Assembly (NCBI GenBank): GCA_041649575.1
Contig: JBAZMW010000001.1
Coordinates: 30,001-62,000, forward strand
Reading direction: 5' to 3'
DNA from: Patescibacteria group bacterium
Lineage (GTDB): Bacteria > Patescibacteriota > Patescibacteriia > 2-01-FULL-39-33
Length of the DNA stretch: 32,000 nucleotides
Shown here: piece by piece, positions 996 through 29,392 of the stretch
How the letters are laid out: every line of letters starts with the position of its first letter
How positions within the stretch are numbered: the stretch's first letter is position 1
The notes under the pieces: model-generated
What the model was told of the DNA's origin: nothing
Databases searched by the model: none
Seen by the model: the letters and a program-made list of their open reading frames with translations, nothing else
Program-made: the position numbers and the translations under genes

Positions 996-1020
996 TAAAA
1001 ACATAACGGTTAATTTTACT

Positions 1021-8963: not shown

Positions 8964-8973
8964 GGCTGATTTT

Positions 8974-8982: not shown

Positions 8983-9031
8983 TTATCCTGTTAGACAAAA
9001 TTTTAAATTTTTTATTTGTCTTGCAATATGT

Positions 9032-9286
9032 ATGTATTATGTCTATATTTTGGAATCTATAAAAGATAAAAAATTCTATACTGGCTTTACTAAAAATTTA
9101 AAATTTAGATTTGAGCAACATCAAAAAGGATTGGTTGACTCTACTAAGAATAGGAAACCGTTTAAATTAATTTACTATGAGGCTTGTCTTAACCAGCAGG
9201 ATGCTACTAGGAGAGAAAAGTACCTAAAAACGATTTATGGCAAAAGATACCTCAAGAATCGGCTCGAATCTTATCTAACAGGATGA
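9032..9286 (+). CDS. Small stand-alone GIY-YIG nuclease family protein (84 aa)
   Basis: ORF track starts at 8939, but that extension runs through the terminator and promoter. The ATG at 9032 gives MYYVYILESIKDKKFYTGFTKNLKFRFEQHQKG...REKYLK, a GIY-YIG pattern (YVYIL...YTGFT...R...H). Confidence 0.8.
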   Translation: MYYVYILESIKDKKFYTGFTKNLKFRFEQHQKGLVDSTKNRKPFKLIYYEACLNQQDATRREKYLKTIYGKRYLKNRLESYLTG

Positions 9287-13609: not shown

Positions 13610-14545
13610 ATGGAAGGCGACCGACAGGAGGAGTCAATTTTGAGCGATAACTCGGATTTAGAGTTAAAATCCCCATACAAAAGGGGTAATTTTTCTGTTG
13701 TTGGCCGCTCAAAACCAGAAAAAATTATTTCGGTAGCGGTGGTGGTGATGATTTTGGTGGCACTTTTTTTTGCCTATTACCAGCTGGCTAGCAGTTTTAA
13801 GAAGCCTTTTGTTAATTTTAGTCAGTTGGCGGCTAGTAGTAATACTTCCTGTTCTGACGGCAGTTGCTCTGGAGAGAATTCGGCCTCGGAAGAAGAACTA
13901 AAAAATACTGACACAGACGGAGACGGCCTTTCTGATTATGATGAGCTAAACGTTTATAAGACCAGCCCCTACCTAGAGGATACCGATAGCGACGGCACCA
14001 GCGATAAACAGGAAGTGCAGTTGGGGTACGACCCAAACTGTCCCGGTAAGAACCCTTGTTTTGGCTTCAATTTTGATGCTGTCAGCCAAGCCGCTTCGAC
14101 CACGGCGCCGTCTTTTCAGATCATGCCTAGCACCCCAGTTCAGCAAATAACTCCTGATTTTTTGCGTCAGCAGCTGAAAGCCAGCGGCGCTACCGAAGAA
14201 CAATTAGCCCAGTTTAGCGATGCCGAGCTTTTGGCCATGTATGAGGAATATGTGGCCGAAACGGGGAGCCAGAATACCCAAGCGGGACAGGCCGGCAGTC
14301 AGACAAATTCTGGCGGCACTGGCACCAATAATTCTTTGCAGCCTAGCGGCAATATCGATTTAAGCCAGCTTAATGTGCAGTCGGTAGACGATCTTAAAAA
14401 ATTAACAGGGGCGCAAATCAGACAACTAATGATTCAGCAGGGCGCGCCGGCCGAGACCTTGTCCCAAGTCAGCGACGACAAGCTTAAGGAAATGTTCTTG
14501 GCGCAGCTGGAGAGTAAATTAAGCGAGACAAATACTAATAAATAA
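13610..14545 (+). CDS. Membrane-anchored protein with thrombospondin type-3-like Ca-binding repeats and an internally duplicated C-terminal motif (311 aa)
   Basis: ORF track. TM helix IISVAVVVMILVALFFAYYQLA. DTDGDGLSDYDE (13910-13945) and DTDSDGTSDKQE (13979-14014). A duplicated segment: QQLKASGATEEQLAQFSDAELLAMYEEY versus RQLMIQQGAPAETLSQVSDDKLKEMFLAQL. Confidence 0.7.
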   Translation: MEGDRQEESILSDNSDLELKSPYKRGNFSVVGRSKPEKIISVAVVVMILVALFFAYYQLASSFKKPFVNFSQLAASSNTSCSDGSCSGENSASEEELKNTDTDGDGLSDYDELNVYKTSPYLEDTDSDGTSDKQEVQLGYDPNCPGKNPCFGFNFDAVSQAASTTAPSFQIMPSTPVQQITPDFLRQQLKASGATEEQLAQFSDAELLAMYEEYVAETGSQNTQAGQAGSQTNSGGTGTNNSLQPSGNIDLSQLNVQSVDDLKKLTGAQIRQLMIQQGAPAETLSQVSDDKLKEMFLAQLESKLSETNTNK

Positions 14546-14566: not shown

Positions 14567-17500
14567 ATGAATCCAGGAGAAGGAACAAAAAAGATAACGA
14601 AAAATCTATTTAACAAGGTGATAGTGGTTGGTTTTTTGTTAAGTTTTTTTATTCCAGCTTTGGTTATAGCGCAGGAGGTTGTTCCAGGAATTAGCGGCGT
14701 TAATGTGGCGGATGTGCACGATGAAAATGCTTTTAGGGTGGCTACGGAAGGAGGGGGAGATGCTGTGATTACTTGCAATAATTTTGTCGCTGGCGGTTTG
14801 GCAACATCCGGAGATATAGCCGCTTTAATTAAATGTATAGAAAGCGGGACTAAGGCGCAAAACAAAACGGTTGACAAGAATACCCTCAAGCAACTCAAGG
14901 CCTTGGAACAAAAGCAGCAGCGTGAAGAATTGTTCAGTAAAATGAAGGATGAGCTGAAAAAGAGCATGGCCGGCGCTTTTAAGACCATGCTACGGCAATT
15001 TTCCAAACAATTGGCTTATGACACGGCCGTTTGGGTAGCTTCTGGCGGCAAGGGGCAACAGCCGCTGTTTATGACCGAGGGTATCGGCGCTTATTTGCGA
15101 AATCAGCTAGATAATGCCCTGGGTGTGTTTTTGGACGAACTGGGCCGCTATTATGGCGTGGATGTCTGTACGCCAAATTTCCAGATTAGAGCGCTCCTGC
15201 CCGGTTATTTGGGCAGACCACAGGTGAGTGTTCGCTGTTCTTTTACTAAAATGATCAGTAATTGGCAGAGTGCGGCCCAAAATGCCAGCTTTGCCGTGGA
15301 GTACAGAAGATTTTTGAGGCCAGGAGAAAATGATATTTCTTCGCTACTAATGATTAAAACCGGTTTGAGCAACAAACTAGACCAAGAATTAAGAGATAGC
15401 GTTTTAAATGTTTTATCGAAAGATGGCTGGAAGGATGTTAAAGATTTTGCCGGCTGGGTTTTGACTCCGGGCACCATGGTGCGCAAGGCCACCGAAAACG
15501 CCATTGATCCCCAAAATACTTCGATAGCGGACTACACCTATACCGATACACTCTGGGATTTTATCGAAACTTTTTTGAACACGCTGACGGGAAAACTCTT
15601 AGAAAATTTAATGACTGGCTTTTTCAGCTCCGGCGGCAATACCCAAAATTTCACTACCGGTAATTCAAGCTCCAGTTTATTTAATCCTTTGGCGCAACCG
15701 TTTAGCGAGGGCCAAGAAGGAGCACAGGAAAGATTTCTGAGTCTGGTGGAGGGAAGTTTGCAGGTGGGCGGTGTTTACGATATTTTGAACAAACTGACCC
15801 AATGCCTGGATTCCAGTAAAAGCAATTTAGGGCCGACAGACTGTGTTATTGATCAGGCCCTGGCTCAAGCCATAAGAGAAAAAAAATTAGTCAAAGATTT
15901 ATCCGCGGATATTTTAAATCGTCAGTTCGCTCCCTCTATCTCGGCCAACATCAATCCGCAGACAGTTTTTACCTTAAGAAATATTGTTATCTTGAGAAAA
16001 TATCGAATCGTGCCTGTTGGCTGGGAAGTCGCCGCCAAACTGGTCAATGAAAAAGCCAAACAAATTTATACTTTGCGTCAGTTGATGGAGTGTTATAACG
16101 GCTGTGATCGTTTTGGCAAAGAAGAGGATTTTTGCGGCAATCCGGCCGTGGAAGACACCAGTAGCTGGTGCCGAGGACTGGTTGATCCCAACTGGGTCTT
16201 AAAGGCGCCGGAACTATTCTGCCGGCGGGAAGGATACGGGATCGAAAGCGGCGCCATTGATTCCCAGAACAGTGTCAGTCGGGATAAATATTGCGCCGAC
16301 GAACAGCAATGCATCAAAGAAGATGAAAAAGGCAATTGTTTGGCCTATGGTTATTGCACCAAAGAACGCCGGACTTGGGATTTTAATTCTTCCACCTGCG
16401 ACCCGAAATTCAACACTTGCTTTAATTTTAAATCGCGAACGGGAGCTGCCAACGCTTATTTGGCCAACACCCTTGATTATAGGGATTGCGACGCTCAAGT
16501 GGCTGGTTGTCGTTGGCTGGCTACGGCTTTGAATCCGGTTAGTAATTATTGGTTGAATCTAACCTATAAAACGAACGAGCTGGGCAAACCCAAGGAAGTC
16601 TTAAAGACCTGCAATAATCCTCTGGGTTGCGAGGTGACGGGAGCCAGCGCAGCTGCCGCTGTGACTTATGGCCACAACATTAGCCCCGATGCCAAAACGA
16701 TCCTTTCCCAGCCCTGCAATAAAAGCGCCGGCTGTTCTTACGAAACCAGTAAGTGCACCATTCCTAACGGTGGCGTCACTTGTTCGCCAATAAAAGCAGC
16801 TTGTGACGGCCAAAATAATATTTTGGCCGGTTATAATGGCAATTTTGCCAAATGCGCCTCTTGGAATGCGGAAAAGTGGGAAGAGGGCTGGGGCGGCTCG
16901 GAGAATAATCACCACGCTTGCGTTACTGGTGTTGGCGTGACCGGCAGTGGCATCAAAGACGACAAGGCCCTGGCCAGCTATACCCTGGGCCAGCAGGTAA
17001 GCTCGGCCTTAAGAGACATCTCGGTTGAGCCAAATAAAAAATACATTCTGACTTTTGAAGCCAAGAAAAGCGCTCTGGATGCTTATGGTGGAGTTACTAG
17101 GGGTTCGGTTGCTGTCAAAGTGGAGTTTACCGATACCAGCGGCAAGAAGACCGATCAAGGAGTTGTCTTGGCGGCCGATGATTTGAGCGATACTGGTTAT
17201 CGGACTTTTACTATTGGCAATATCAATAACGGTAATAATGACAAGTTTACCATCAAAGTGACGACCAACGCCGGTTCTTATGGCAGTTTCTATTTTGATG
17301 AATTTATTTTGCGGGAGGTGACGGAGAACTGTTTTGAGACCAACCTGGTTTTGACTAATGGCGTTCAAACGGAAGACGACAGCAACAAGGAAATTTATTT
17401 TGACCGCGACATTCAGTCTTGCGACGCCAAAGACGAGGGCTGTAGCCAATTTATTCGCACCAAGGCCGGGTTGGGCAGCAACTTAATACCCAACAGCGGT

Positions 17501-20500
17501 TTTGAGATTGATGCTGGTGGCGATAATAAACCGGATGGCTGGGTAGAGAGAGGGCTGACCAATATTAGTCTGGACACCAACGATAAATATAAAGCCAAGA
17601 TAGTTTATAGCGCCGAAGGATATGATAAATATCCACTGATACCGGTAGAGGCCGGCGAATATTATGCCATTTCCTTTGATGCCGCTCAAGCTATTAGTGG
17701 CAACAATGACGAAGCTGATTTGGAAATGATTTTTTTGAACAAGGAAGCGGACGCGATTATTGGGGCAACCGGTATAAAAATCGACAAGACAAATTGCGCC
17801 CAGACCGGAGACAACACCATTACTTTGAGAAATTTGCCTGCAAATATGAATATGCAGAGGCAGTCTTGCTACTTTTTGGTGCCGGCCGGGGCCAGAGTTA
17901 TGGGTTATAAGCTGTTTTCGGCCACCGCCAGTGGAGTTAATTTTATTGACAACATAAAATTGGAAAAAATAAATTATTTCAGCTTGAACGCCTCGGTTTA
18001 TACACCCTATACGCCTTCGGAACGACCAGTAAGCCAGTTGGCTTTTGTCAAAAAGGCTCCTGCTTATTACGGCTGTTATAAAACCGGCAGTCTTTGGCCG
18101 CAGAGCGAGACTGAATTGGAAAGAGTTTTGCTTGGCCGCAGTGCGGCCTGCGCTAATTTTGCCAGCGTTTGTATCAGAGATGAAGTTGGTTGCGAACGTT
18201 ATAGTCCGCTAAATAAGGATCCGGCAGTGCCGGGCAAAATCAACGCGCTTAATATCTGCCCGGCGGAGTGTGTCGGCTACCAGCTGTATCGCAAAGAGAA
18301 AACTTATTTCGAAAGCGTAAGCTACGAAAAATTCATTGCCGACAAAAAACCGCAGTATTGCTCGGCCGCTTACGCCGGTTGTGATGAGTTTACCAATTTA
18401 GACGAAGTGGCCAAGGGCGGCGAGAGCAGGGAATACTATTCGCAACTGCGCGTTTGTCAGCAACCGGCCGCCGACGCCAGCGATGCCACTTATTACACCT
18501 GGGAGGGCAGCGACACCACCGGCTATCAGCTAAAAACTTATCAGTTGAAAAAAAGTCAGACGGACAGCTTTGATACTAATGCTCCCTGCACTGTTTTGGA
18601 TTATCCGGCCAGTTTAAATGGCAAGAACCAGTGTAATGACCTGAAAGATGACGGAACCAACAGCGTTGGTTCGGTTTCATTGCCGGCCGGCTACAGTAGT
18701 CTAAAGGGTTATTTAACGGTTTTACAGGGTTATACCGATACCAGTAGCAGCGATCCGAATTTACCCACTATTGTTAACTCGGGAATTTTGGACGAGTTGC
18801 ACGAGTTTGGCATCTGCGCCAAACAAGAGCTCAACGGCATCGTTTACAATCGAGGCACGATGGATGATGCCAGTGACGATATTTACATTTATGCCAATGC
18901 CGATTGCCGCGAGTTTTATGATGGCAGCGGCCAAGTCCATTATCGGCTGCTTTCCAAGGCAATCTTTTCTTCCAGCGAGTGCCATCCTTATCGTCGCAGC
19001 CAGGTTCAGACCGATACGGCCGAAGCCCAAGCCGATTGCCGAAATTCCCAAGGCTATTGGAATGCTAACGGAGAGTGTATTTATATGGCGATACCCGGCC
19101 AGGGAAAGACTTGCCCTGCCAGCGCCAAGGGTTGCCGTCAATATGTCGGCAATCAAGGCAACAACGTCCGTTTGAAGTTTTTTGATAATTTTGAGAGTAA
19201 TCTGGGCGCCTGGCAAGGCGGCGGTGTTCTGGCCATGGAAGCCACTAATCCGGGAGGCAAATCATTAAAGAAGGCGGGCGGTGGCGAGATTAGCCGGCCG
19301 GTTGCCACAGTCAAAAATAAGGCTTATATCTTAAGTTTTTGGGCCAAGGCTTCGGCCGACGCCGTTGTGCTGGATGCAATTAAATTTAAAGGAGCGGAAA
19401 ATAACTCCGACAATTATTTTGCCGAAAGCGACAGCGACGCCGACAATATCCCGCAAGCAGTTTTAAATACCACTTGGCAGAAATATGACTTAGGTCCGGT
19501 TTTTGTCACTTGGGACGAAAGAGCCGACGAAGCGCTAGAAATCAAAGCGCCGGCCGGAGTCGATGTCTTTTTTGACAACATAATTCTAAAAGAAGTTCAG
19601 CAAAACGTTTACCTGATCGCCAATACTTGGTTTACGCCTTTTGCTTGCGATAACATACTGGAAACACCCTTTGGGTCAGCCGGTGATTCCAATAATCCGA
19701 CTCGTGACAGCCAAGGAGAGATGCTCGGCTGTCAGGCTTACAATGATCGATCCGATCAACCCTGGTATTTGAAATCATTTTCCAGATTATGCCGCGAAGA
19801 CGCTGTGGGTTGCGAGGCCTTAATTAATACCTTTAACTCCGATTCTCCTTGGGGCAAGGAATTTAATAACGAAGACTTGGAAACGCATGATGACGTGACG
19901 GTCCAGAGCGATCAGGCGGTCTATTTGGTCAATGACAATCAATATGCTTGTCAGGCCGAGGATAAGGGTTGCACGGCTTTCGGCTTGCCCAGCGTCACCA
20001 AGTATGACGAAACAATAGGTTACAGCACTGTGTATTTGGAAAACGTTCCTGACCGTTATAGCTTTGATCTGTGCCGTTACCAAAATTTATGGTGCGAGGA
20101 ATTCTCCAGTGCCGATGCCCGCGAACTGTCTTATTTTAAGGATCCCAGAGACAAGCTGTGCGAGTACACCGCGATTTCCGGCAAGAATTACAGCAACTGG
20201 TATGCCAAAGGGACTAATAATCCCTGTCTGACCACCGCCACGCAAACGATTGGTCTGGGTTCGGCCGATGAGAAGCGGCAGCCAATCGGCTGGTATGACA
20301 ATAAAACAGAGACGGAGGTGGCGGATTATAAGGGTTGGGCCGGCCTGTGTCCGGCCGAGCAGAGCTCTTGCACCGAATATATCGATCCGCTGACCGAGGT
20401 TTATGAGGGTCTCTTTAATAAGGAGGAAAACAGTTTCAAAAACTGTGCCGGCGAAACTCCAGGAGCCGAGCAAAACAATTGCGGTTATTATGTGTTAGAA

Positions 20501-23500
20501 CTGGAGGACGAAAATCTTTATACCATCTCGATCAAGAGAACCAGCTCCGGCAATGTCGCCACCCAGCTAGTTTGCGATAATGAAATTTGGTCGCCGGATA
20601 AGAGTTTGGATGTGTCTGGCTCTAGTAAATTAATTTTAAACAGAGACAACGTCGGCGGCGATAAGCAGGTTAGCGGTAGATTTTATCTGGAAAGTACCGG
20701 CGCCGGCCAGGCCAGAGTCAATTGTCGCATTTACGATCCTGGTTTTGACGGCGAAGAGATCGAAGTGGTTAAGGCCGGGGTTTATTATCAATTGGCCAAA
20801 GCGGTCAATCGCGCCGCCTGCAACGGTTTGGTGGATATAGATAGCGGTTGCGTTTTGTTCAATGAGAGAGGAGAGATGAATTACTCCAAGCAGGGCGTGG
20901 AGAGAGTCCGCGATTATCTTGACTTTGACGCCGATGAAACTTTCAATTTGCAAATCAAAGCTGCCAGTAAAAATCCACAGCCGCCATTTTCAGCGATTTT
21001 GCCAGGCCAAAAAAATTCTAATTCGATCATTAAAGTGTCGCCAGACAGGGAATGCAGCGGCTGGCTGTTTTGCACCACTTACGAAAAAGCCAATCCCGAA
21101 GATACGGATTTGGCCTTTGGCAGTCAGGATAAGTGTTTGGAAATAGGCCTCTGCAGTCGCTTTGATAGCAAGGGAAATTGTTTGAAATATTCGCTGGGCA
21201 AAAAAGAAGCCCTGTCTACCAGCACCCCCGATTTTCAAAACTTAACGGGATACTCCATCAGCGGTTATTACCCGACAGATCTGATGGAACAAATCGGCAA
21301 TGCGGCCAACTTGCCCAATGGTAATTTTGAATCAACTTACTCGGGAACCAAAGAACCTCTTGGCTGGTATATCGGCGGCAGTCATTATGATTCGGACAAC
21401 ATCAAACAGCCAGGACAAGTCAGCGGCTGGGGCGATTATCGTTTTAGCATCGAACGGGATTCTGCCAATCGTAGGGAAGGCTCTGGTTATTTAAAATTAA
21501 ACGGAGCCTATGAGGCCGAATCGGAACTGGTAGATGTTTTCCCCAATGTTGATTACACTATTTCGGCCTGGGTAAACACGCTTAACCTGCAGCCCACTTC
21601 GACGCAAGCGGAAATTCTGGTCAGGGAGCTAAACGCCAGTGGCAATACTATAAAAAATTCCAACTGCTCGGCCGTGGCCGGCTGTTATGAAGTCAAAATC
21701 AATGGCATCTCCTGGTCTTTGTATGGCGGACTGAAATTAAAAGCCGGCCAGCCCTGGCTTAGAGTCAACCAGCGGATAAAAACTATGCCGGAAACTTCAA
21801 GATTGCAAATTAAACTGTTAAATTTTCTTAGTAGCCAGGATTATGTAAATTGTCGCGACCAGAACGCAGCCACCTATTGCAAAACGGGGGGCTACACTTT
21901 CTTTGACGATTTACAGATAAACGCCGCCCTGAAAGTTAATGACAAAGAGAACATAAAAAGAGACTGTCGCGCTTATCCCGAGCAGGATTCATTGGCCTGT
22001 CGGTATTTCAAAGATAATCAGTTTTTTTATGGCTGGTCCGGCTACTGCCTGACTTATGATCCGCTAAACTCTCGTTCCTGTCTGCAGTGGTGGCCGGTCG
22101 ACAATATAAAAGGGGAAGTGGAGGACGAGGTTTCCGGTTATGACAACAGAGTTCCTTTGTATTATTGTCTGTTAACCGAATTTGAAAGAGAATTGAAAGA
22201 AGTAAGTACCGATGTGATACAGGTTCAGGAAGCGGTCGGCGGCGCTATGCCGGTTGCCTCTCAGGCCCAAGGAGTGGCGGGAACAATTTTGGATTTTTTA
22301 GAATTCATTCTTAATATTGTGGGCGATGTCTTTCTGGGCGGAACTAATAGCGGAACAATCATAACCGACCTGATAGCCGGCGGCTTGCAGACTTTTGCCG
22401 GCATTGATGTCGGGTCGAGCGGCTCTTCGTCTTCAAAATCGAATATGCCTCAATGCGAAAGACTAAGCTTTGAGGATTTGAAATTCGATCCGACCACAAA
22501 AAGCTTGAATTCCTGGGTTGCCAGTATCACCGGGAATAATTCCAGAAACGTCGATGCCAAGTATCTGAAGCCGATAAGTTTGTATAATGTAGTCTATATC
22601 ACCCTGGATACCGGCTATGGCGGCGGCGGCGGCGTGGAATGCGAAGATCAGGGCGGGCATAATTTACAAAAAGTAAAATACACGGAAAATTTTATTCTTA
22701 GAGGTCTGTATAAATTGGTTGTCGGCGGTACTAGCAGTATAACTACCGAAGATTATGGTTATGTTTCTCCTGGCGATGGTACGGCCGGCCTGGATTATAG
22801 CGACAAGACTTATTGCGCGGGTTTTGTGACCTTTTTTGACAAAGACGAGAACGGTCATCGCAAAGGAGAAATAAAAAACATGATAGCCTGCGCTCAGGAT
22901 ACAGGGGAGTACACCCATCAGGACACCTTTAACTTTAAGTTTAAGATAGGCTACATGACAGACAAGCAGGGCCCGGCTTGCCAAATATTGGCTCAAGTGG
23001 TGACTCCGATGGGCAATAACAAGGCTTGGAGCAGAAGGGTGGCCAAGGGCAGTATTTTCACTATGCCTGGTCTTGGCACTTCGTATAATTCCGATTATCC
23101 TCCTTATGGCGCGGTGGTGCCGCCGGAGCCGGCGCATTATCCCGAGGTTTGGGATACCGACTTAACTCAAAAAGATAAGCAAAAATTATATCATTCCGCG
23201 CCGGAACTGGAAAGCCAAAAGCCCTATCAGGCCAGGGCGGGAGAAGTGTTTAGTTGCGTCAATTATGTCAATGATTTGCCAGGTTATGATGGAACAATGG
23301 GAGCGTTAAGAAGTATTTTTGGAGTCGCTTCCAGCTGGGCTTATAAGGTGCCTTGTTTTGAGGGCTGCCTGAAAGGCATCAGAACCGACAATGCCTGGCA
23401 GGGACTAACTTCCATAACCCAGTCGGTGCTGTGTGTTTGGAGACATTGCACCAACGCCTGCAATTTCATCGGCCGTTGCAGTCAGTCGGGCAGTGTTTGT

Positions 23501-26164
23501 GTCAACTACAACGGCTTTGGCGATGATATTTTGGGTATTGATTCGCTCGACGAACAGTCCATGCCTTGCCCGATTTCCGGAGAAAAATGCGTTAGCATCT
23601 CTTTGTGGAAAATGTTGAACCAAAACGGAGTACCGACCTGGATCGACCAGGCAGCCATTAGAAACAGTTCCAGTTTCATAAAACGACTTTTCGCCAAAAG
23701 TTATGGAGTCTGGACCTGGGCCGGCGATGGGGTCGGCTACAAGAAGACCGACCAATATAATTGGGATGTTCCGGTCAGGCAGTGCGAATTTCACGGCGTG
23801 CCAAATGTTCGTCCTGATCCTCAAAATAGCAGTATCAACGAGATAATTACCGGCTGGTTTGATCTGAATTTTGAAAAAAACCCAGCCACCGTGGCGGATT
23901 GTGATTGGGGCAGCGCCTGCTTGGAGCCGGCCGGCTGTGATTGTCATGGACTGTGCACGGTGCCCAACGGACAACGAACCTGTGAGTATCCCAAAAATCC
24001 GGATTATTGCGGGGTGGCTCCGGTTATCAATAATATCAGAGTGAACAAGAAGGTGGAGGTGGATGTAAACGGAGTGAATTTGTCAAATACGCCGGTTAAA
24101 GTCAGCAACAACAGTAACGTGGAGCTGGAGTTCAACGCGACCTTGGATCCCGAACAGTTGCCGCTCTCGGCTTACCAGGTTGATTGGGGAGATTACAAGC
24201 TCTCTTATTCCGGCATCGAGCTAAGAGACCGCTCCAATATCAAAAATAAATTCAAACTCTATCATTATTATAGTTACGAGAAGTTGTCCAAACAAAACAC
24301 CGGTCTTGATGAGATTTATTGCGACGGAGACGCTCTGCCGCAGGATCCAGCGGTAAGTCCGCCGGTTCTGACCGTTGCTTCCGGAGAATGCTGGCTAAAA
24401 ATAAAAATTCAGGTGCGCGATAATTGGGGCTGGTGCAACGGCAGTGATAGCGCCAAAGGTTTTCATGTCAGCAGCGGCAAATGCGGTTCAGACGAGGCCT
24501 GGAGGAATTTTGGCCGCTGGGTGGTGGTAATAAAGAATTTCGAAGACCTCGATGTGGAAGAAGATAAAGAGCTAAATAATGACAGTGATCTGGATTTAGC
24601 TTTCACGCCCTATAATGGTATTTGTGAGCCGGGAGAGGATATTAATACCGAGCCGGCCTGCCCCCTGACTTCGGGCGCCAGTTTTTCTTTGAGGCACAAT
24701 ACTATGAAAAGAACTATCAGCACCAATCCGCAACTTGATGAATATTGGTATTTTTCCACCGGTCAGGGTGAGGATATAACTAAAATCAGGAATTTAAGAA
24801 TCAGGGCGATCGGAGTTTTAAATTCCAAGCAATGGGAAATAGATGATCAGGTTGTGAAGAACGGCGCGAGATTTAATTTGGTTAAAGTCCCCTACGAGGT
24901 GCAGAAGAATTGCGAGGTCAAACGGCTCAGCGCCGTAGAGGAGCCGACACTAGGGGACGGCGATTGTGTTTACATCGAAAGCGAGAGACTAGCCGCCGGC
25001 GCCTCCGAAAGCGGCCAGATTTGGGACACCGCTCTTTATAGCCCGCAGTTGTTCACTTACCCGTCAATATTAGAATATGACTACCAGTTTAAAAGAGAAG
25101 GCCAGATAGAAAATCCGCCAACTGTTTTTAAGCTTCATGGAGAGAGGACTTTCTATCGTGGCACGGTGATTACTTTAGAGGAGAGAGACGACGACGGCAC
25201 CATTAAGAGCGGCGCCAAATATATAGATGTTGACACCGAAGCCTGTGATTCCGTATTCTGTGATTTAAAGCAAGGTTCGGCTAATGGTTTTCATGTTTGT
25301 GACAATCAGGGAGATTGTTCTGTCAACGCTTGCGATGGTCGGTGGGACGATAAGGATTTGATTTACAAAACCGTCTGCGAGCTCTTTGGCACGGATAGCC
25401 ACTGCCGGCCAGAGTGTTCTTGCGAACAGGGTTTTCAGGCCAAAACATCCGCCGATGGCACTTGCGTAGATTGTTCCAGTGGCCAAAGTTGCGGCTGTCC
25501 CAGTTTCCAGTGCTGGAATTCTTCAAGCAAAACGTGCGAACCATGTGGCCTGAAGCTGATGGGCAGATTCGCTCTGGAAGAAGCCGTTAACACGGCCGTT
25601 GTCGGGGCGACCGCGCCCAATACCGACGGCCGGCGAAATTTGACAGTCAAAGACAAAGACTCCAATTTTATCCAAGAAGGCGATCCAGACGCTCTACTTT
25701 GCTTCCAGCTGGTGAAGATAAAAAACAGCTCCGGAGCAGAGCAAAGCAGTTTTACCAGAGATTTGCAAAATGGCGATATTGTCACTCTGTTTACTCCTTG
25801 GGGCTGCGTGCAAGAGGCCGGTAATGATTACGTGGTGGGCGCTGGGAGCGGTTGTCGCGAATTCAAAGTTGAAGGCAGCCCGGTTTTTTCCAAGGGCTCG
25901 ACTATGACTCTAAAAGATGGCAGCAGTTATTGGGATGCCGATATAGCCGGAAGTGGCAAGATAAGTAAAGGCAGCTTAAATACCTTCAAAGTCGGTGATT
26001 GCAGCGACGGCAGCTTTGCCTTGGCCAGTTCTGAGTGGCGTTTGGCCAGCGGCCGCGTGGCGGGAGCGAGCGAGAGCGGAGCCGGATCGAGGCTGGGCCG
26101 GCTGGAAGGAGCTTTGGCTGATTTGTGGAACAATTTTTCAAAATTAGTGGCCAGAGTATTTTAG
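14567..26164 (+). CDS. Giant secreted/surface Cys-rich multidomain protein (3,865 aa), putative adhesin
   Basis: A single uninterrupted ORF in the track. N-terminal signal/anchor KVIVVGFLLSFFIPALVIAQE. Native-type A/T-ending codons. Four CBM4_9-like modules, a recurring C-x6-C motif, a PKD-like segment and an EGF-like Cys-rich tail (listed separately). Confidence 0.85.
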   Translation: MNPGEGTKKITKNLFNKVIVVGFLLSFFIPALVIAQEVVPGISGVNVADVHDENAFRVATEGGGDAVITCNNFVAGGLATSGDIAALIKCIESGTKAQNKTVDKNTLKQLKALEQKQQREELFSKMKDELKKSMAGAFKTMLRQFSKQLAYDTAVWVASGGKGQQPLFMTEGIGAYLRNQLDNALGVFLDELGRYYGVDVCTPNFQIRALLPGYLGRPQVSVRCSFTKMISNWQSAAQNASFAVEYRRFLRPGENDISSLLMIKTGLSNKLDQELRDSVLNVLSKDGWKDVKDFAGWVLTPGTMVRKATENAIDPQNTSIADYTYTDTLWDFIETFLNTLTGKLLENLMTGFFSSGGNTQNFTTGNSSSSLFNPLAQPFSEGQEGAQERFLSLVEGSLQVGGVYDILNKLTQCLDSSKSNLGPTDCVIDQALAQAIREKKLVKDLSADILNRQFAPSISANINPQTVFTLRNIVILRKYRIVPVGWEVAAKLVNEKAKQIYTLRQLMECYNGCDRFGKEEDFCGNPAVEDTSSWCRGLVDPNWVLKAPELFCRREGYGIESGAIDSQNSVSRDKYCADEQQCIKEDEKGNCLAYGYCTKERRTWDFNSSTCDPKFNTCFNFKSRTGAANAYLANTLDYRDCDAQVAGCRWLATALNPVSNYWLNLTYKTNELGKPKEVLKTCNNPLGCEVTGASAAAAVTYGHNISPDAKTILSQPCNKSAGCSYETSKCTIPNGGVTCSPIKAACDGQNNILAGYNGNFAKCASWNAEKWEEGWGGSENNHHACVTGVGVTGSGIKDDKALASYTLGQQVSSALRDISVEPNKKYILTFEAKKSALDAYGGVTRGSVAVKVEFTDTSGKKTDQGVVLAADDLSDTGYRTFTIGNINNGNNDKFTIKVTTNAGSYGSFYFDEFILREVTENCFETNLVLTNGVQTEDDSNKEIYFDRDIQSCDAKDEGCSQFIRTKAGLGSNLIPNSGFEIDAGGDNKPDGWVERGLTNISLDTNDKYKAKIVYSAEGYDKYPLIPVEAGEYYAISFDAAQAISGNNDEADLEMIFLNKEADAIIGATGIKIDKTNCAQTGDNTITLRNLPANMNMQRQSCYFLVPAGARVMGYKLFSATASGVNFIDNIKLEKINYFSLNASVYTPYTPSERPVSQLAFVKKAPAYYGCYKTGSLWPQSETELERVLLGRSAACANFASVCIRDEVGCERYSPLNKDPAVPGKINALNICPAECVGYQLYRKEKTYFESVSYEKFIADKKPQYCSAAYAGCDEFTNLDEVAKGGESREYYSQLRVCQQPAADASDATYYTWEGSDTTGYQLKTYQLKKSQTDSFDTNAPCTVLDYPASLNGKNQCNDLKDDGTNSVGSVSLPAGYSSLKGYLTVLQGYTDTSSSDPNLPTIVNSGILDELHEFGICAKQELNGIVYNRGTMDDASDDIYIYANADCREFYDGSGQVHYRLLSKAIFSSSECHPYRRSQVQTDTAEAQADCRNSQGYWNANGECIYMAIPGQGKTCPASAKGCRQYVGNQGNNVRLKFFDNFESNLGAWQGGGVLAMEATNPGGKSLKKAGGGEISRPVATVKNKAYILSFWAKASADAVVLDAIKFKGAENNSDNYFAESDSDADNIPQAVLNTTWQKYDLGPVFVTWDERADEALEIKAPAGVDVFFDNIILKEVQQNVYLIANTWFTPFACDNILETPFGSAGDSNNPTRDSQGEMLGCQAYNDRSDQPWYLKSFSRLCREDAVGCEALINTFNSDSPWGKEFNNEDLETHDDVTVQSDQAVYLVNDNQYACQAEDKGCTAFGLPSVTKYDETIGYSTVYLENVPDRYSFDLCRYQNLWCEEFSSADARELSYFKDPRDKLCEYTAISGKNYSNWYAKGTNNPCLTTATQTIGLGSADEKRQPIGWYDNKTETEVADYKGWAGLCPAEQSSCTEYIDPLTEVYEGLFNKEENSFKNCAGETPGAEQNNCGYYVLELEDENLYTISIKRTSSGNVATQLVCDNEIWSPDKSLDVSGSSKLILNRDNVGGDKQVSGRFYLESTGAGQARVNCRIYDPGFDGEEIEVVKAGVYYQLAKAVNRAACNGLVDIDSGCVLFNERGEMNYSKQGVERVRDYLDFDADETFNLQIKAASKNPQPPFSAILPGQKNSNSIIKVSPDRECSGWLFCTTYEKANPEDTDLAFGSQDKCLEIGLCSRFDSKGNCLKYSLGKKEALSTSTPDFQNLTGYSISGYYPTDLMEQIGNAANLPNGNFESTYSGTKEPLGWYIGGSHYDSDNIKQPGQVSGWGDYRFSIERDSANRREGSGYLKLNGAYEAESELVDVFPNVDYTISAWVNTLNLQPTSTQAEILVRELNASGNTIKNSNCSAVAGCYEVKINGISWSLYGGLKLKAGQPWLRVNQRIKTMPETSRLQIKLLNFLSSQDYVNCRDQNAATYCKTGGYTFFDDLQINAALKVNDKENIKRDCRAYPEQDSLACRYFKDNQFFYGWSGYCLTYDPLNSRSCLQWWPVDNIKGEVEDEVSGYDNRVPLYYCLLTEFERELKEVSTDVIQVQEAVGGAMPVASQAQGVAGTILDFLEFILNIVGDVFLGGTNSGTIITDLIAGGLQTFAGIDVGSSGSSSSKSNMPQCERLSFEDLKFDPTTKSLNSWVASITGNNSRNVDAKYLKPISLYNVVYITLDTGYGGGGGVECEDQGGHNLQKVKYTENFILRGLYKLVVGGTSSITTEDYGYVSPGDGTAGLDYSDKTYCAGFVTFFDKDENGHRKGEIKNMIACAQDTGEYTHQDTFNFKFKIGYMTDKQGPACQILAQVVTPMGNNKAWSRRVAKGSIFTMPGLGTSYNSDYPPYGAVVPPEPAHYPEVWDTDLTQKDKQKLYHSAPELESQKPYQARAGEVFSCVNYVNDLPGYDGTMGALRSIFGVASSWAYKVPCFEGCLKGIRTDNAWQGLTSITQSVLCVWRHCTNACNFIGRCSQSGSVCVNYNGFGDDILGIDSLDEQSMPCPISGEKCVSISLWKMLNQNGVPTWIDQAAIRNSSSFIKRLFAKSYGVWTWAGDGVGYKKTDQYNWDVPVRQCEFHGVPNVRPDPQNSSINEIITGWFDLNFEKNPATVADCDWGSACLEPAGCDCHGLCTVPNGQRTCEYPKNPDYCGVAPVINNIRVNKKVEVDVNGVNLSNTPVKVSNNSNVELEFNATLDPEQLPLSAYQVDWGDYKLSYSGIELRDRSNIKNKFKLYHYYSYEKLSKQNTGLDEIYCDGDALPQDPAVSPPVLTVASGECWLKIKIQVRDNWGWCNGSDSAKGFHVSSGKCGSDEAWRNFGRWVVVIKNFEDLDVEEDKELNNDSDLDLAFTPYNGICEPGEDINTEPACPLTSGASFSLRHNTMKRTISTNPQLDEYWYFSTGQGEDITKIRNLRIRAIGVLNSKQWEIDDQVVKNGARFNLVKVPYEVQKNCEVKRLSAVEEPTLGDGDCVYIESERLAAGASESGQIWDTALYSPQLFTYPSILEYDYQFKREGQIENPPTVFKLHGERTFYRGTVITLEERDDDGTIKSGAKYIDVDTEACDSVFCDLKQGSANGFHVCDNQGDCSVNACDGRWDDKDLIYKTVCELFGTDSHCRPECSCEQGFQAKTSADGTCVDCSSGQSCGCPSFQCWNSSSKTCEPCGLKLMGRFALEEAVNTAVVGATAPNTDGRRNLTVKDKDSNFIQEGDPDALLCFQLVKIKNSSGAEQSSFTRDLQNGDIVTLFTPWGCVQEAGNDYVVGAGSGCREFKVEGSPVFSKGSTMTLKDGSSYWDADIAGSGKISKGSLNTFKVGDCSDGSFALASSEWRLASGRVAGASESGAGSRLGRLEGALADLWNNFSKLVARVF
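16820..17320 (+). other. CBM4_9/galactose-binding-like beta-sandwich module A of the giant protein
   Basis: Contains ILAGYNGNFAKCASWN...KKYILTFEAKKS...YRTFTIGNI... and ends in the shared terminal strand motif FYFDEFILREV. Confidence 0.45.
17480..17971 (+). other. CBM4_9-like beta-sandwich module B of the giant protein
   Basis: Starts NLIPNSGFEIDAGGDNKPDGW, continues ...EYYAISFDAAQ..., and ends NFIDNIKLEKI. Confidence 0.55.
19178..19597 (+). other. CBM4_9-like beta-sandwich module C of the giant protein
   Basis: Starts FFDNFESNLGAWQGGG, continues ...KAYILSFWAKAS...WQKYDLGPV..., and ends VFFDNIILKEV. Confidence 0.55.
21311..21931 (+). other. CBM4_9-like beta-sandwich module D of the giant protein
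   Basis: Starts LPNGNFESTYSGTKEPLGWY, continues ...GSGYLKLNG...DYTISAWVN..., and ends TFFDDLQINAAL. Confidence 0.5.
24017..24200 (+). other. PKD/Ig-like segment of the giant protein
   Basis: APVINNIRVNKKVEVDVNGVNLSNTPVKVSNNSNVELEFNATLDPEQLPLSAYQVDWGD. The terminal VDWGD resembles the PKD WDFGD signature. Confidence 0.4.
25244..25549 (+). other. Cys-dense EGF-like region near the C-terminus of the giant protein
   Basis: CDSVFCDLKQGSANGFHVCDNQGDCSVNACDG...CRPECSCEQGFQAKTSADGTCVDCSSGQSCGCPSFQCWNSSSKTCEPCG. Confidence 0.45.
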
Positions 26165-26200: not shown

Positions 26201-29200
26201 ATGACAGTCAGAAGAAAAAAATTGATTTTAATTATAACAGTCGTCTTGTTTTTGGCTGGAATTTTTTTGTTGAGCAGTAATATTTCTTTTGCCCAGGAAA
26301 CCAACTCCGACTCCAATATTAATGGCAATATCAGTTCGGATTCCGATGTCGAAGCCGACACCAACATTAATGCGGATTACAACCCCAAGCCAGCCGAGAA
26401 TGCCGGCGCACCAGCCAATGACGGCAAGATTGCCGGGTTCATTAATTGGATTTTGTATTACGTGGCTTCGTTTTTTGGCTGGCTGGTGGGGCTGATAGTC
26501 AATGTTTTGGTTAATAAGGTGGTGGTTTTTAATGATTTTTTGAATGTCCGGCTGGTCAAGGAGGGCTGGCGCATTGTGCGCGACATCTGTAATAATTTTT
26601 TTATCGTCATCTTGCTGGTGATCGCCGTGGGCACTATTTTGCGGGTACCCAACTATCAATACAAACAATTGTTGCCAAAACTTTTGATAATGGCGGTGCT
26701 GATTAATTTTTCCAAGATGATTACCGGCGTCCTCATAGATTTTTTTCAGATTATTATGGTGTTTTTCGGCGGAGCCCTGGTAAAAGAAAATGCCGCCGGA
26801 GTGATTTTGGCCAGTGTGGGGTTGTATAAGCTATATTTATTGGGACAAAACCCAGGGGGACAAATTCTTGGGAACGAGAATTTGCAGGATTGGGATATTA
26901 CTATCGCTCTGTTTTTTGCCATTGTAATCTCCATTGTCGCCTGCGTGGCGATAGGAGTGACTATGATCATTCTGGTCTATCGTATTGTAATGTTGTGGAT
27001 TCTGGTGATTTTGTCGCCGGCCGCTTATTTTCTTTCTTCCTTTCCCAAAGGCCAGCAGTATGCCGGCATGTGGTGGAGCCAATTCGCCAGCAACCTGGTA
27101 GTCGGGCCGGTGCTGCTGTTTTTTCTGTATTTGTCCTTTTTCAGCGGTTACCGCGATGTCGGCGGCGTAGAAAACACTCGGGGAGGGACGGTTACTATCC
27201 CTAGTTCTGCTACTACCCCAGAAGAGCTTAAAAAAAGCGCTAAAGAAGCTAGGACTGATACTGGCCAAAAAGGTTATATAACCGGTTCTACAAATTCACT
27301 CATGGCCACGGATCAAGGATTTTTTGATTATTTAATTATTATTGCCCTGATGATTGCCGGTCTGGCCGTAGCGCAAAAAGCCGGCGCCGCCGGCGGACAA
27401 TGGGCGGGCAAGGGCGTGGCCAGTTTGCAAAAATGGGGGAAGAGAGCAGCCAAGCTGCCTTTAGGTGCAGCCAAGTATACAGCCAAGGAGACTGGCCGAA
27501 AAGTCGCTGGAATTCTAAGTTATGAGACAAAAAGTGGCAAACGACTCCCTTTTATTGGTCAATGGGCTGGTGATATAAAAACTAAGATGGAAGATGATAT
27601 TGTAAAACGGCGTACTGCTATAATGAAAAAAATAGGCATGGGGGACAAGACAAAAGAATGGATAGCCGGCAAGAAGGAGGATTTCAAAAAGGCAAGATAC
27701 CAAGTTTCTGGTAGGCTTGTTCAAGCGCCAGTTGGGGCCGCTGTGCATGGCGCCGGTGGAGCTGCTTTGGGAGCTACTATTGGAGGAGTTGCCGGAGGAG
27801 TTATTGGTATAATGACAGCCAATCCTCTATTAGCCTTGGGTGGGGCCAAGGCTGGTGCTTGGATAGGCGGTGCTATGGGAGGATTTGGCGGTATATTAGG
27901 AGGCTTAGGAAAAAAACCTTTACAATTTACGGTTAAGGCTGCTGAATTAGACACGAAGACGGTAAAAAATGCAAAGAGAAAGGCCGATGCCTTGAATGAT
28001 ACCACCGTGCCAGTTGGTGGCACGGATGAAAGTGGTCTAATTGAGGCCAGAAGTTCATGGAAAAATACCGGGGCGTATATTGGAGCTGGCGGTATTTTAT
28101 CTAAGGAAAATAAAAAGATGCTTGATAATATAAATGACGACGGTCTAGCGCATTTATCGCAAGCCATAGATGCTGAAATAGACCCAACTAAGAAAAGTGA
28201 TTTAAAGGAAGCTTTTACCAAAATGTTGGCTGCTTATAAAAAAGGCGGCGGATCTAATCTTAGTACCATACAGTCATTTCTCGGTGGCGGAAGGAATGTT
28301 TTGGGTATAAGCGAAACAGCTCATATGGATCCTTTAATAGCAGCTAATAAGGTAGACGTTGCTTCCCGTCGTACCGGTACCGAGAAGTTCAGAGAACAAC
28401 GCGGTGACTTAAAGGTAGCTCGGTTTAGTCATCTTAAAGATAACACAGAGGCTGGTGTTGATTTCAGGGATTTGTTTGAAGGCAATTCAGAGCTTCTAAG
28501 TCAAATCAAGGCGCAACAACCGGATTTTGACATCAGTCAAAGCGGTATTCATATCGAAGGCAAGGAAATGACGCAAAAAGTCTCACAAGCCATGGCTGTC
28601 TTGATAGACAAAGAATTGGCCAGTCTTTCTCATAACAGCGCTATTGCTTCGACCGGTCAGAAGGAGCAAATAGGCAGAAGAATGGGAACGCTAAGAACGG
28701 CCAGAGAGCAACTAACGTCTGGCAGATTGCAGCAGTTGCAATTATGGAATAGCGGCCTGGAGAATGAGACCGGCGAAGCGGCAACTACCATTTTCCATGA
28801 AAGGATTCATAAAGCAGGTGTTAAGAGCGAAGTTAAGGCCGAGGAAGGGGCGCGGTTTATTAGGGAAAGGCATTTAGCGGGTTTGCACGAAGAGATCGCC
28901 AGGGAAATGGTAGCCATGGAAGGCGAAAGGGGTGGAGATGATTACACTATGGACGAGGTGATGGCCAGAGTCAAAGAAAAGCATGGCACCAAGGATAAAG
29001 TGAAAAGATTAATTGCCAGAGAACAAGAAGCGGGAGTCGCTCCGGGCAAGACTGGCGCTAAAGAGCCCAAGCCAACCAAAACTATTACCGAAGCCCCCGA
29101 GCTGGAAAGAGCAATACAAGAGCTGACCGAGGCTTTAACCAAAACTAGCAGAAGCGAGGCAGGCGGTGTCGGGCCGGGCGGCGCTTTGCAGCCTGATTTG

Positions 29201-29392
29201 CAAAGAGAAGCGGCTGCCAACGCCAATTTTTTCAGGTTGCTGCAAAGCTTGAGAGAAATCGAAAAAGGCGTAGCTGGCTTGGGGGACAAAGAAGCAAAAG
29301 ATGCTGTCGGCGTGGTGGTCGGGCTGGGGTCAGATCCAGTGCCTTTGGACGCCCAAGTGACGGCCGAGACTGTTAAAAATTCTTTAAGTTAA
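26201..29392 (+). CDS. VirB6/TrbL-like polytopic membrane protein with a ~670-aa C-terminal extension (1,063 aa)
   Basis: ORF track. Signal/anchor LILIITVVLFLAGIFLLSSNISFA, then roughly eight TM helices by eye up to ~27385. These include ...GWRIVRDICNNFFIVILLVIAVGTIL...LLIMAVLINFSKMITGVLIDFFQ..., which resembles TrbL/VirB6-type proteins. The extension has a glycine-zipper segment (27724-27915). Confidence 0.55.
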   Translation: MTVRRKKLILIITVVLFLAGIFLLSSNISFAQETNSDSNINGNISSDSDVEADTNINADYNPKPAENAGAPANDGKIAGFINWILYYVASFFGWLVGLIVNVLVNKVVVFNDFLNVRLVKEGWRIVRDICNNFFIVILLVIAVGTILRVPNYQYKQLLPKLLIMAVLINFSKMITGVLIDFFQIIMVFFGGALVKENAAGVILASVGLYKLYLLGQNPGGQILGNENLQDWDITIALFFAIVISIVACVAIGVTMIILVYRIVMLWILVILSPAAYFLSSFPKGQQYAGMWWSQFASNLVVGPVLLFFLYLSFFSGYRDVGGVENTRGGTVTIPSSATTPEELKKSAKEARTDTGQKGYITGSTNSLMATDQGFFDYLIIIALMIAGLAVAQKAGAAGGQWAGKGVASLQKWGKRAAKLPLGAAKYTAKETGRKVAGILSYETKSGKRLPFIGQWAGDIKTKMEDDIVKRRTAIMKKIGMGDKTKEWIAGKKEDFKKARYQVSGRLVQAPVGAAVHGAGGAALGATIGGVAGGVIGIMTANPLLALGGAKAGAWIGGAMGGFGGILGGLGKKPLQFTVKAAELDTKTVKNAKRKADALNDTTVPVGGTDESGLIEARSSWKNTGAYIGAGGILSKENKKMLDNINDDGLAHLSQAIDAEIDPTKKSDLKEAFTKMLAAYKKGGGSNLSTIQSFLGGGRNVLGISETAHMDPLIAANKVDVASRRTGTEKFREQRGDLKVARFSHLKDNTEAGVDFRDLFEGNSELLSQIKAQQPDFDISQSGIHIEGKEMTQKVSQAMAVLIDKELASLSHNSAIASTGQKEQIGRRMGTLRTAREQLTSGRLQQLQLWNSGLENETGEAATTIFHERIHKAGVKSEVKAEEGARFIRERHLAGLHEEIAREMVAMEGERGGDDYTMDEVMARVKEKHGTKDKVKRLIAREQEAGVAPGKTGAKEPKPTKTITEAPELERAIQELTEALTKTSRSEAGGVGPGGALQPDLQREAAANANFFRLLQSLREIEKGVAGLGDKEAKDAVGVVVGLGSDPVPLDAQVTAETVKNSLS

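Follow-up and report, generated by a model that had tools for sequence, protein, structure and literature searches.

A giant, predicted extracellular protein with carbohydrate-binding-type modules at a putative chromosomal type IV secretion locus of Patescibacteria

The window analysed here, a 32,000-nucleotide stretch of contig JBAZMW010000001.1 from a Patescibacteria group bacterium, contains a giant open reading frame (ORF) encoding a protein of 3865 amino acids (aa), whose residues are numbered throughout. An earlier reading of the window, made from the DNA letters and their translations (hereafter the sequence-only reading), had described this 11.6-kb ORF as unbroken and free of nucleotide-level repeats; a single frame did run through the whole interval, and a direct-repeat search of the DNA detected no repeats. 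The four modules and every peptide that it had picked out were found in place in the translation. The ORF sequence was identical in the ENA, Logan, JGI and NCBI (a metagenome-assembled genome, MAG) assembly records. The ORF and the parts that we distinguish in its product, including modules similar to carbohydrate-binding modules (CBMs), are as follows.

14567..26164, plus strand: giant ORF, 3865 aa, ATG start; NCBI MFA5029165.1, 'hypothetical protein'
14567..14674, plus strand: signal peptide, aa 1-36; h-region aa 18-36, with the AXA-type site between ALVIA and QE
14954..16561, plus strand: family-defining N-terminal domain (N-domain), ~540 aa, aa 130-665, delimited by alignments and profile search
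16820..17320, plus strand: module A, aa 752-918, CBM-like beta-jelly roll with the CX6C pair C739/C746 ahead of it
17420..17452, plus strand: CX6C mini-motif CDAKDEGCSQF (C952/C959), 17 residues before module B
17480..17971, plus strand: module B, aa 972-1135, CBM-like beta-jelly roll
17972..19177, plus strand: Cys-rich connector between B and C, aa 1136-1537, with pairs C1202/1209, C1265/1272 and C1516/1523
19178..19597, plus strand: module C, aa 1538-1677, a bona fide CBM_4_9
19598..20371, plus strand: Cys-rich connector after C, aa 1678-1935, with four CX6C pairs, C1742/1749, 1795/1802, 1836/1843 and 1928/1935
20372..20836, plus strand: possible fifth, degenerate jelly-roll module, aa 1936-2090, weak
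21311..21931, plus strand: module D, aa 2249-2455, divergent CBM-like with insertions
21932..22201, plus strand: Cys-rich segment after D, identity 0.40, CR.YP..DS.SC.Y...G..GYCL..DP.N...CLQWWPVD
22202..22966, plus strand: lineage-specific insert, aa 2546-2800, Gly-rich and hydrophobic
23942..24466, plus strand: 'WGDG' domain, aa 3126-3300, usually the C-terminal domain of the family
24467..26161, plus strand: C-terminal extension, aa ~3340-3865, including an 'EGF-like' Cys-rich stretch

The N-terminal signal or anchor proposed from the sequence corresponds to the hydrophobic segment at aa 18-36, and a hydrophobicity scan of the full-length protein detected no second transmembrane (TM)-like segment. 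An N-terminal hydrophobic segment was present in 115 of the 128 full-length relatives and an internal TM-like segment in only 4; the N-termini of the relatives were typical of cleavable signal peptides, with AXA-Q type sites. No LPxTG motif occurs anywhere in the giant, and none was found within the last 60 residues of any of the 128 relatives. These features support the prediction that the giant is exported by the Sec pathway and is extracellular.

Four CBM4_9-like modules had been proposed, three of them opening with N-x-x-FE...GW and all ending in a common strand. The opening pattern N..F[EA]...GW was found three times, in modules A, B and D, against 0.04 expected, and module C opens with DNFE...AW. 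The closing pattern [FIYL]D[DEN][FILV].[LIV] occurred exactly four times, once at each module end, where 0.42 copies were expected by chance and three was the maximum in 1000 shuffles. With the Pfam CBM_4_9 model (PF02018), module C scored 34.7 bits against a gathering threshold (GA) of 25.9 and was the only module above it; module A remained below at 15.4 bits, and modules B and D had no Pfam match. Profiles of the region were also compared with the Protein Data Bank (PDB), where the matches of modules A, B and C spanned E values from 5e-11 to 1e-5. At E 5e-11, the profile of aa 940-1700 matched 4xup, the Xyn10C tandem of CBM22-1 (aligned to module B) and CBM22-2 (aligned to module C); it also matched CBM4 1gui, CBM16 2zex, 1k42 and hyaluronan-binding 4d0q. 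The profile of module A matched the hyaluronan-binding CBM 4d0q (1.3e-9), CBM4 1gui (3e-6) and the glycan-receptor-binding domain of the binary toxins CDTb/Iota-Ib (8e-7 to 1e-5). The PDB matches of module D (0.019 and 0.28) were not significant, and this module was joined to A (97.0%) and B (97.3%) solely by hhalign, which linked the other pairs at 95.9% (A-B), 98% (A-C) and 90.5% (B-C). The proposal of four modules thus holds for A, B and C by Pfam or PDB profile, and for D by way of the A and B profiles only. The possible fifth module was similar to module B in hhalign (89% probability, E 2e-6) over 48 columns only, and aa 1136-1537, 1685-1935, 2091-2248, 2800-3125 and 3126-3300 showed no profile similarity to modules A-D.

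Structure prediction agreed with these assignments. In an AlphaFold2 (AF2) tile covering aa 940-1700, with a mean predicted local distance difference test score (pLDDT) of 60.8 and values of 76-92 in module C, modules B and C were all-beta. Foldseek matched the tile to a porphyran CBM, CBM16 and CBM22 at a target TM-score of 0.55-0.68 and prob 1.00, and to a wider list including CBM4, CBM61 and CBM70 at 0.5-0.68. Matches to Cry-protoxin, reelin and Elapor1, with a TM-score of ~0.1, were set aside as sums of jelly-roll matches. At least one CBM_4_9 match per protein was obtained in 13 of 15 diverse family members, whose domains consisted of CBM_4_9 and other jelly-roll families only; in keeping with the absence of a catalytic motif remarked on earlier, Pfam and NCBIfam revealed no catalytic or enzymatic domain in these 15 proteins. 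As a whole, these comparisons support the view that at least three of the beta-sandwich modules are of the CBM4/16/22 type, and the modules are accordingly predicted, by homology, to bind glycan. Modules A-C resemble the CBM4/9/16/22 modules of glycoside hydrolases, including the N-x-x-F-E...W opening and the [FY]-D-[DN]-hydrophobic closing strand, but the family differs from those enzymes in having no catalytic domain in any of the 15 members and in setting its modules in a conserved Cys-rich scaffold.

This scaffold is marked by a short Cys pair. C-x6-C occurs 16 times in the giant, compared with 4.5+/-2.1 in residue shuffles, and the longer form C-x6-C-x2-[FYLW] 11 times, compared with 0.83 expected and a maximum of 5 in 1000 shuffles. 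The sequence-only reading had listed nine pairs of identical spacing, and all of them (C641/648, 952/959, 1202/1209, 1265/1272, 1516/1523, 1742/1749, 1795/1802, 1836/1843 and 1928/1935) were present and invariant across 15 aligned family members, which are 32-43% identical to the window protein. Copies had been noted ahead of modules B and C, and each lies 17 residues before its module; the additional copy C739/C746 stands just ahead of module A. The motif extends to a consensus of [YF]-L-x-[ND]-x(3-7)-C-x5-G-C-x-x-[YF]. Among the 134 Cys of the giant, 59 were kept in at least 80% of the 15 members, and the jelly-roll modules are nearly Cys-free. In both AF2 models the C-x6-C pairs were located in the loop joining adjacent short strands, as in the tile of aa 940-1700, where the C952/C959 motif is flanked by two such strands; the models thus point to the pairs as probable disulfide-closed beta-hairpins. 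The connector between B and C (mean identity 0.36) was modelled by AF2 at low confidence and contains invariant columns within the motifs GCDEFTNLD...GGE..EYY and YTWEGSD.TGYQL, and the connector after C has a mean identity of 0.40. No Pfam or PDB relative of the Cys-rich connectors was found.

The N-domain is composed of a helical part, which carries WVASGGKGQQPLF and LRKYRIVPVGWE, and a Cys-rich beta-hairpin part with CADEQQC...GNC..YGYC..E..W, and closes with the first CX6C pair, C641/C648. The charged residues R477, R480, E487, D540 and D578 are invariant or near-invariant in the family alignments. Its AF2 model was of moderate quality (mean pLDDT 60.5), but confident in its long helices (aa ~56-146) and in a unit that joins a helix to a long beta-hairpin (aa ~386-596), where pLDDT reached 80-96. 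No relatives of the N-domain were found in Pfam, NCBIfam or PHROGs; nothing significant was obtained among PDB sequences by phmmer or profile search, or by Foldseek against the PDB (best E 1.0) and the viral BFVD. A globin match in the PDB profile search (E 0.019) was judged spurious, and a Phage_TAC_12 match (16.9-20.9 bits, GA 26.2) was attributed to coiled-coil noise.

Two further labels were not borne out. The region at aa ~3126-3300 had been called PKD-like, and its WGDG motif does resemble the WDFGDG of PKD domains; however, no PKD Pfam match was obtained at E<=10 in 10 members, nor any PDB-sequence match. This WGDG domain is kept in ~100-117 of 127 relatives. The stretch at aa ~3560-3660 had been called EGF-like; a search of aa 3479-3865 returned no Pfam match at E<=10, and the stretch belongs to an organism-private region, the C-terminal extension having no homologue in the 127 relatives or in any locus examined. 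The lineage-specific insert at aa 2546-2800 was covered by 4-18 of the 127 relatives, with a partial match only in the closest relative (L001/L089). It includes the stretch ...GTILDFLEFILNIVGDVFLGGTNSG...GGGGG..., which remains under the TM threshold.

The giant belongs to a large family. An exhaustive profile search with aa 130-665 against 50%-identity cluster representatives detected 2246, 1348 and 1123 of them at E<=1e-3, 1e-10 and 1e-30, respectively; among the matches listed, most were 2300-3865 aa long and carried the N-domain at residues ~100-650. A word-indexed search returned five matches, fragments only, and under-reported the family because its database apparently lacked proteins longer than ~2100 aa. 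Relatives contain a median of nine C-x6-C-x2-[FYLW] motifs and 3.5% Cys. By the names and titles of their source records, they occur in Buchanan-, Falkow-, Magasanik-, Uhr-, Kuenen- and Kerfeldbacteria and in unclassified Patescibacteria, that is, in ABY1-type bacteria within the candidate phyla radiation (CPR), and the closest are from Buchananbacteria, with 50-57% identity in the N-domain. Many GTDB representative MAGs with the CPR-specific locus (L006, L010, L011 and others) are titled 'uncultured Gammaproteobacteria bacterium' (TPA_asm), and a few fragments bear a Deltaproteobacteria, Omnitrophica, Methylomirabilis or Bacillota label; most likely, such labels are placeholders or the result of mis-binning. 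A phage or plasmid origin was rejected, as no relatives were present in IMG/VR, INPHARED phages or PLSDB plasmids. The protein currently carries only the label 'hypothetical protein' or 'carbohydrate binding domain-containing protein', and in the literature library searched we found no paper that describes the family. The analysis defines three conserved sequence modules that lack annotation: the N-domain, the connector with its C-x6-C pairs, and the WGDG domain.

BLAST comparison of the window protein with 127 full-length representatives revealed collinear blocks at aa 100-650, 950-1350, 1450-2550, 2800-2900 and 3150-3300. Mean identity was 0.37-0.43 in the N-domain and 0.35-0.40 in the Cys-rich connectors, compared with 0.13, 0.17, 0.30 and 0.25 in modules A, B, C and D, where conservation is lowest; only ~30% of relatives possess module A. 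At the level of sequence, this pattern is the inverse of that of a simple lectin array, and since the N-domain and connectors are conserved above the binding modules, it fits a protein with a fixed partner.

An intact orthologue of 2418-3814 aa was present in 55 of the 61 species-level loci with a complete gene. Two loci have the gene in pieces. In L001/L089 (ENA ERZ21878410 contig_4, 802 kb), a ~40%-identical orthologue that is collinear over aa 36-3363 contains five frame changes and is called as six ORFs; the breaks may be either indel errors of the contig or the marks of a pseudogene. In L004 (10001-22767), from another CPR organism in the same sample, the counterpart consists of three adjacent genes. 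One product, of 1869 aa, corresponds to window aa 96-1976 and another, of 1304 aa, to window aa 2150-3324, while the middle gene encodes a 1073-aa protein with FN3-like (Pur_ac_phosph_N) and Big_7 domains that has no counterpart in the window protein. Because each of the three parts has its own signal peptide, we regard L004 as a true split rather than an error, and the giant accordingly behaves as a fusion of separable extracellular subunits.

The giant is followed and preceded on the same strand by genes that place it in a wider locus.

13610..14545, plus strand: TSP3-repeat membrane protein, 311 aa, TM segment aa 39-57; Pfam TSP3_bac 33.9 bits (GA 25)
26201..29392, plus strand: VirB6/TrbL-like polytopic protein, 1063 aa; signal/TM plus ~8 TM segments (~9 hydrophobic segments) and a long charged C-terminal region
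29396..30331, plus strand: conserved soluble protein, 311 aa; no Pfam, NCBIfam or PHROG match; position shared in L087-L092
30360..31829, plus strand: conserved soluble protein, 489 aa; no Pfam, NCBIfam or PHROG match

The TSP3 protein is single-pass; it combines two Ca-binding repeats of the bacterial TSP3 type with a CPxGxxC pair and with conserved helical modules towards the C-terminus. In 79 of 84 related loci its gene immediately precedes that of the giant, and the order RsmA, TSP3 protein, giant is kept in 76-79 of them. A VirB6-like homologue was found downstream of the giant in 49 of the 84, most of the others ending too early to tell. Three of 20 VirB6-like orthologues matched Pfam TrbL (best 3.4e-5), and several homologues carry precomputed PF04610 or PF19590 annotations. 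A HERIH sequence at aa ~845 of the VirB6-like protein, similar to the HExxH of metalloproteases, was not conserved in the alignment of the 20 orthologues and was therefore taken as probably due to chance. The 311-aa and 489-aa soluble proteins, which lie between the VirB6-like gene and PrgI, have a paralogous N-terminal domain of ~77 aa (36% identity, E 2e-11), and their position is shared in five other clusters of type IV secretion system (T4SS) genes. The genes in the window form a same-strand array with intergenic gaps of 125 bp (ahead of the TSP3 gene), 21, 36, 3 and 28 bp, and no plus-strand terminator-like site was found between rsmA, the TSP3 gene and the giant. Neither tRNA genes nor Rfam features were detected in the window.

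Beyond the window, the source contig encodes PrgI/VirB3, a TraC-like protein, a VirB4-type ATPase, a ComF-like protein, RecG, RadA and a T4SS_pilin gene. PrgI (35.7 bits, GA 27) and the VirB4-type ATPase (P-loop_TraG 102.1 bits, AAA_10 45.2 bits) lie 3.5-6 kb past the window end. The TraC-like protein carried a precomputed PF26593 annotation in all six clusters, and our own hmmscan at E<=0.01 gave no match; the ComF-like match was weak (DZR_2 21 bits and Pribosyltran 19 bits, both below GA), and the RecG and RadA-like genes were called on L085. No relaxase family was found among the called genes within 10 kb of the six T4SS clusters. The gene order from the giant to the T4SS core was the same in six of the seven genomes examined (the source and five others).

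These genes can be compared with what is known of T4SSs in this group. Patescibacteria possess a chromosomal, MPF_FATA-related T4SS comprising VirB4, TrsD, PrgI/VirB3, VirB6 and VirB2-like pilins (Quinonero-Coronel et al. 2025, PMC12102498). It mostly lacks a relaxase, its ABY1 loci commonly contain comF, recG and radA, VirB1 homologues are mostly unlinked to virB4 and another enzyme may serve in their place, and no adhesins such as PrgB were detected in the survey (PMC12102498). The locus studied here shares with that system VirB4, PrgI/VirB3, recG, radA and T4SS_pilin, and putatively also a VirB6-like protein, a ComF-like protein and a TraC-like protein that is a possible counterpart of TrsD; the published components include neither the giant nor the TSP3 protein, nor the two soluble proteins. 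By its gene content, therefore, the locus matches the chromosomal T4SS locus of ABY1-class Patescibacteria.

The sequence-only reading had concluded that the giant is an extracellular, disulfide-stabilised, multivalent glycan-binding adhesin. Export is supported, and the disulfides and glycan binding are predicted from models and homology; the notion of an ad hoc multivalent adhesin gives way to a member of a large family of fixed, collinear architecture that lies beside T4SS genes. Because the giant is embedded in a Patescibacteria T4SS operon, its likeliest role shifts from that of a generic adhesin to that of an arm of a secretion machine. We hold, with modest confidence, that it is a Sec-exported, dedicated extracellular arm of a chromosomal, conjugation-derived T4SS of the ABY1 (Buchananbacteria-like) type. 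The N-domain would hold the exported protein non-covalently at the membrane or cell wall, through the VirB6-like protein, the Ca-binding TSP3 protein or both. The Cys-rich connectors, as hairpins closed by the C-x6-C pairs (probably disulfides), would form a rigid stalk, from which the variable, Cys-free CBM-like modules and the unique C-terminal extension would project outward and bind glycans of a host envelope. Such binding would dock the T4SS channel on the host for transport, which may be protein export or the acquisition of DNA or nucleotides; the linkage to ComF, RecG and RadA hints at DNA as the cargo.

This role would be functionally analogous to that of PrgB-type adhesins, with no homology implied. 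A 2025 review (PMC12857230) stresses that the T4SSs of Gram-positive bacteria depend on adhesins anchored in the cell wall, PrgB among them. Like the giant in the reading proposed here, PrgB (aggregation substance of pCF10) is a large exported surface protein encoded in one operon with VirB6 (PrgH), VirB3 (PrgI) and VirB4 (PrgJ), upstream of them, in a system of the MPF_FATA type, and it is believed to attach to polymers in the partner cell's envelope (PMC12857230). In contrast to PrgB, the giant is about three times larger, is chromosomal with no nearby relaxase, and combines CBM4/16/22-type modules with novel Cys-rich connectors and a novel N-domain; no sequence relationship to PrgB was found, no adhesin domain was matched in Pfam or NCBIfam by the giant or 15 relatives, and an LPxTG anchor is absent. 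Since it has neither homology nor LPxTG, the giant is not a member of the PrgB family and the analogy concerns function only.

Other large or glycan-binding proteins of reduced-genome bacteria are comparable in part. The VirB6-4 paralogs of Rickettsiales, which reach 4,322 aa, are likewise giant, tied to VirB6 and found in host-dependent bacteria with reduced genomes (PMC7648143); there the extension is reportedly fused to the polytopic VirB6, whereas the window giant is predicted to be exported by Sec as a protein of its own, and its domains are unrelated. The T4SS is essential for the epibiotic growth of a Saccharibacterium, in which essential envelope proteins with glycan-binding domains were also reported and targeting of host glycans was speculated upon (Wang et al. 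2023, PMC10633639). Those Saccharibacteria proteins (SEML1_0890/0891/0315) are, like the giant, exported CPR proteins with polysaccharide-binding domains, but they contain VCBS, FN3 and dockerin domains, were not reported in the T4SS cluster, and represent another family (PMC10633639). The Omnitrophota, too, have giant proteins (West-Roberts et al. 2023 preprint) that are very large, exported and equipped with CBM-like beta-barrels, and that come from ultra-small, probably host-dependent bacteria; they differ in being repeat-rich and much larger, with dockerin/CBM35-like units, whereas the window giant has non-repetitive DNA, a fixed collinear architecture and a T4SS linkage.

Several points weigh against a role as a secretion arm. 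The function is proposed from gene neighbourhood and domain homology only. The VirB6-like protein of the window itself reaches no Pfam threshold, and the N-domain has no detectable relative and a model of moderate quality, so that its docking role is a guess. One Falkowbacteria genome keeps the TSP3 protein, the giant, the VirB6-like protein and the 311-aa protein with VirB4 located elsewhere, so that the block need not be linked to the ATPase core. The housekeeping neighbours LeuRS (leucyl-tRNA synthetase) and RsmA are equally conserved around the locus, so the conservation could partly reflect the general synteny of small genomes. Finally, the disulfides would have to form in what is probably an anaerobic CPR bacterium.

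The same observations bear on the alternatives. The giant may be a stand-alone multivalent glycan-binding adhesin that works independently of the T4SS, its neighbours being a synteny coincidence in a tiny genome, as the equal conservation of LeuRS and RsmA and the single genome with the block away from VirB4 would allow; the CBM-type modules, the signal peptide and the lack of a catalytic domain are also what such an adhesin would show. Nevertheless, the adjacency to the VirB6-like gene persists where VirB4 is elsewhere and across lineages that are only 30-35% identical, and the best-conserved parts are the N-domain and the connectors, not the binding modules; for these reasons we consider this explanation unlikely. 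Another proposal, that the giant is a core envelope scaffold (S-layer-like or wall-associated) whose modules bind the cell's own wall polymers and shape or protect the envelope, is in our view quite unlikely. The protein is indeed exported, very large, widespread and without a covalent anchor, and it occupies a single conserved locus beside the cell-envelope genes FemAB, Acyl_transf_3 and MFS, but neither the giant nor the 15 members contain an S-layer homology (SLH) or other S-layer domain, and 3.5% Cys is atypical for S-layer proteins. Moreover, relatives differ greatly in their modules and termini, contrary to what a self-binding lattice would lead one to expect, and in L004 the subunits are secreted separately, with extra FN3/Big_7 proteins inserted.

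An envelope-breaching enzyme or toxin appears improbable. The N-domain would then be wall-degrading (VirB1-like) or membrane-inserting, with CBM-like modules for targeting, by analogy with CBM-bearing glycoside hydrolases or with Cry and binary toxins that have CBM-like receptor-binding domains. Its attractions are a helical N-terminal part followed by beta-sandwiches, the near-invariant charged residues of the N-domain, the resemblance of module A to the receptor-binding domain of CDTb/Iota-Ib, a match of one homologue to Endotoxin_C, and the vacancy left by the mostly unlinked VirB1, which another enzyme may fill (PMC12102498). However, searches with Pfam, NCBIfam, PHROGs, PDB profiles and Foldseek revealed neither a hydrolase nor a toxin family, there is no hydrophobic helical hairpin past the signal peptide that would attain the TM threshold, and the Foldseek matches to Cry and reelin are low-scoring and driven by the jelly roll. 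Lastly, that the giant is an artefact of assembly or annotation (by chimeric joining, repeat collapse or read-through across several genes), as the six ORFs of L001/L089 and the three genes of L004 might suggest, is so very unlikely as to be negligible, because the identical, repeat-free ORF recurs in the assemblies of ENA, Logan and NCBI and shares its collinear order with 127 full-length relatives, because 55 of 61 loci have an intact ORF, and because each L004 part has its own signal peptide.

Some genes elsewhere in the window may be recorded here. LeuRS (1100 aa, 967-4269, plus strand) contains a Ser_hydrolase / alpha-beta-hydrolase insert at aa 550-718 (PF06821, 62.4 bits), between the editing domain and the remaining catalytic core; the orthologue in L001 has a NUDIX match in the same gene instead, so that different enzyme domains appear to have been inserted in the LeuRS of related CPR bacteria. 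At 4360-5978 on the minus strand, two ORFs without Pfam or NCBIfam matches lie in a GC-rich island (0.52-0.55, compared with 0.39-0.45 around it). One encodes 351 aa with a signal-like N-terminus, and L001 contains a homologue of it in the corresponding position; the other, of 188 aa, has a single TM segment. A small GIY-YIG nuclease gene (8939-9286, plus strand; 59.2 bits) is located between a TPM/LemA pair and FemAB, and a GIY-YIG gene also occurs inside the T4SS cluster of L091; these genes are possibly mobile, homing-type elements.

Returning to the giant as the extracellular arm of the T4SS, a bolder form of this reading is possible, though we put it forward only tentatively: rather than an accessory adhesin, the giant may be an integral, previously unrecognised class of extracellular subunit of the Patescibacteria T4SS and a host-contact conduit. 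The N-domain would then sit on the VirB6-like channel with the TSP3 protein as anchor, the Cys-stapled stalk would span the envelope, and the modules would serve as exchangeable glycan-recognition heads. If so, auxotrophic epibionts would obtain DNA, nucleotides or other goods through a giant conduit, which would stand in for the wall-spanning and tip components of monoderm T4SSs that are missing and would determine host range.

Patescibacteria/CPR account for a large share of bacterial diversity, and all cultivated members live on other microbes. In the only species that is genetically tractable, epibiotic growth requires the chromosomal T4SS. The giant described here is a concrete candidate for the host-recognition element of this T4SS and for the determinants of its host range. 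Family models and structures are warranted for the three unannotated modules (N-domain, C-x6-C connector and WGDG domain), each of which occurs in more than 1000 sequence clusters.

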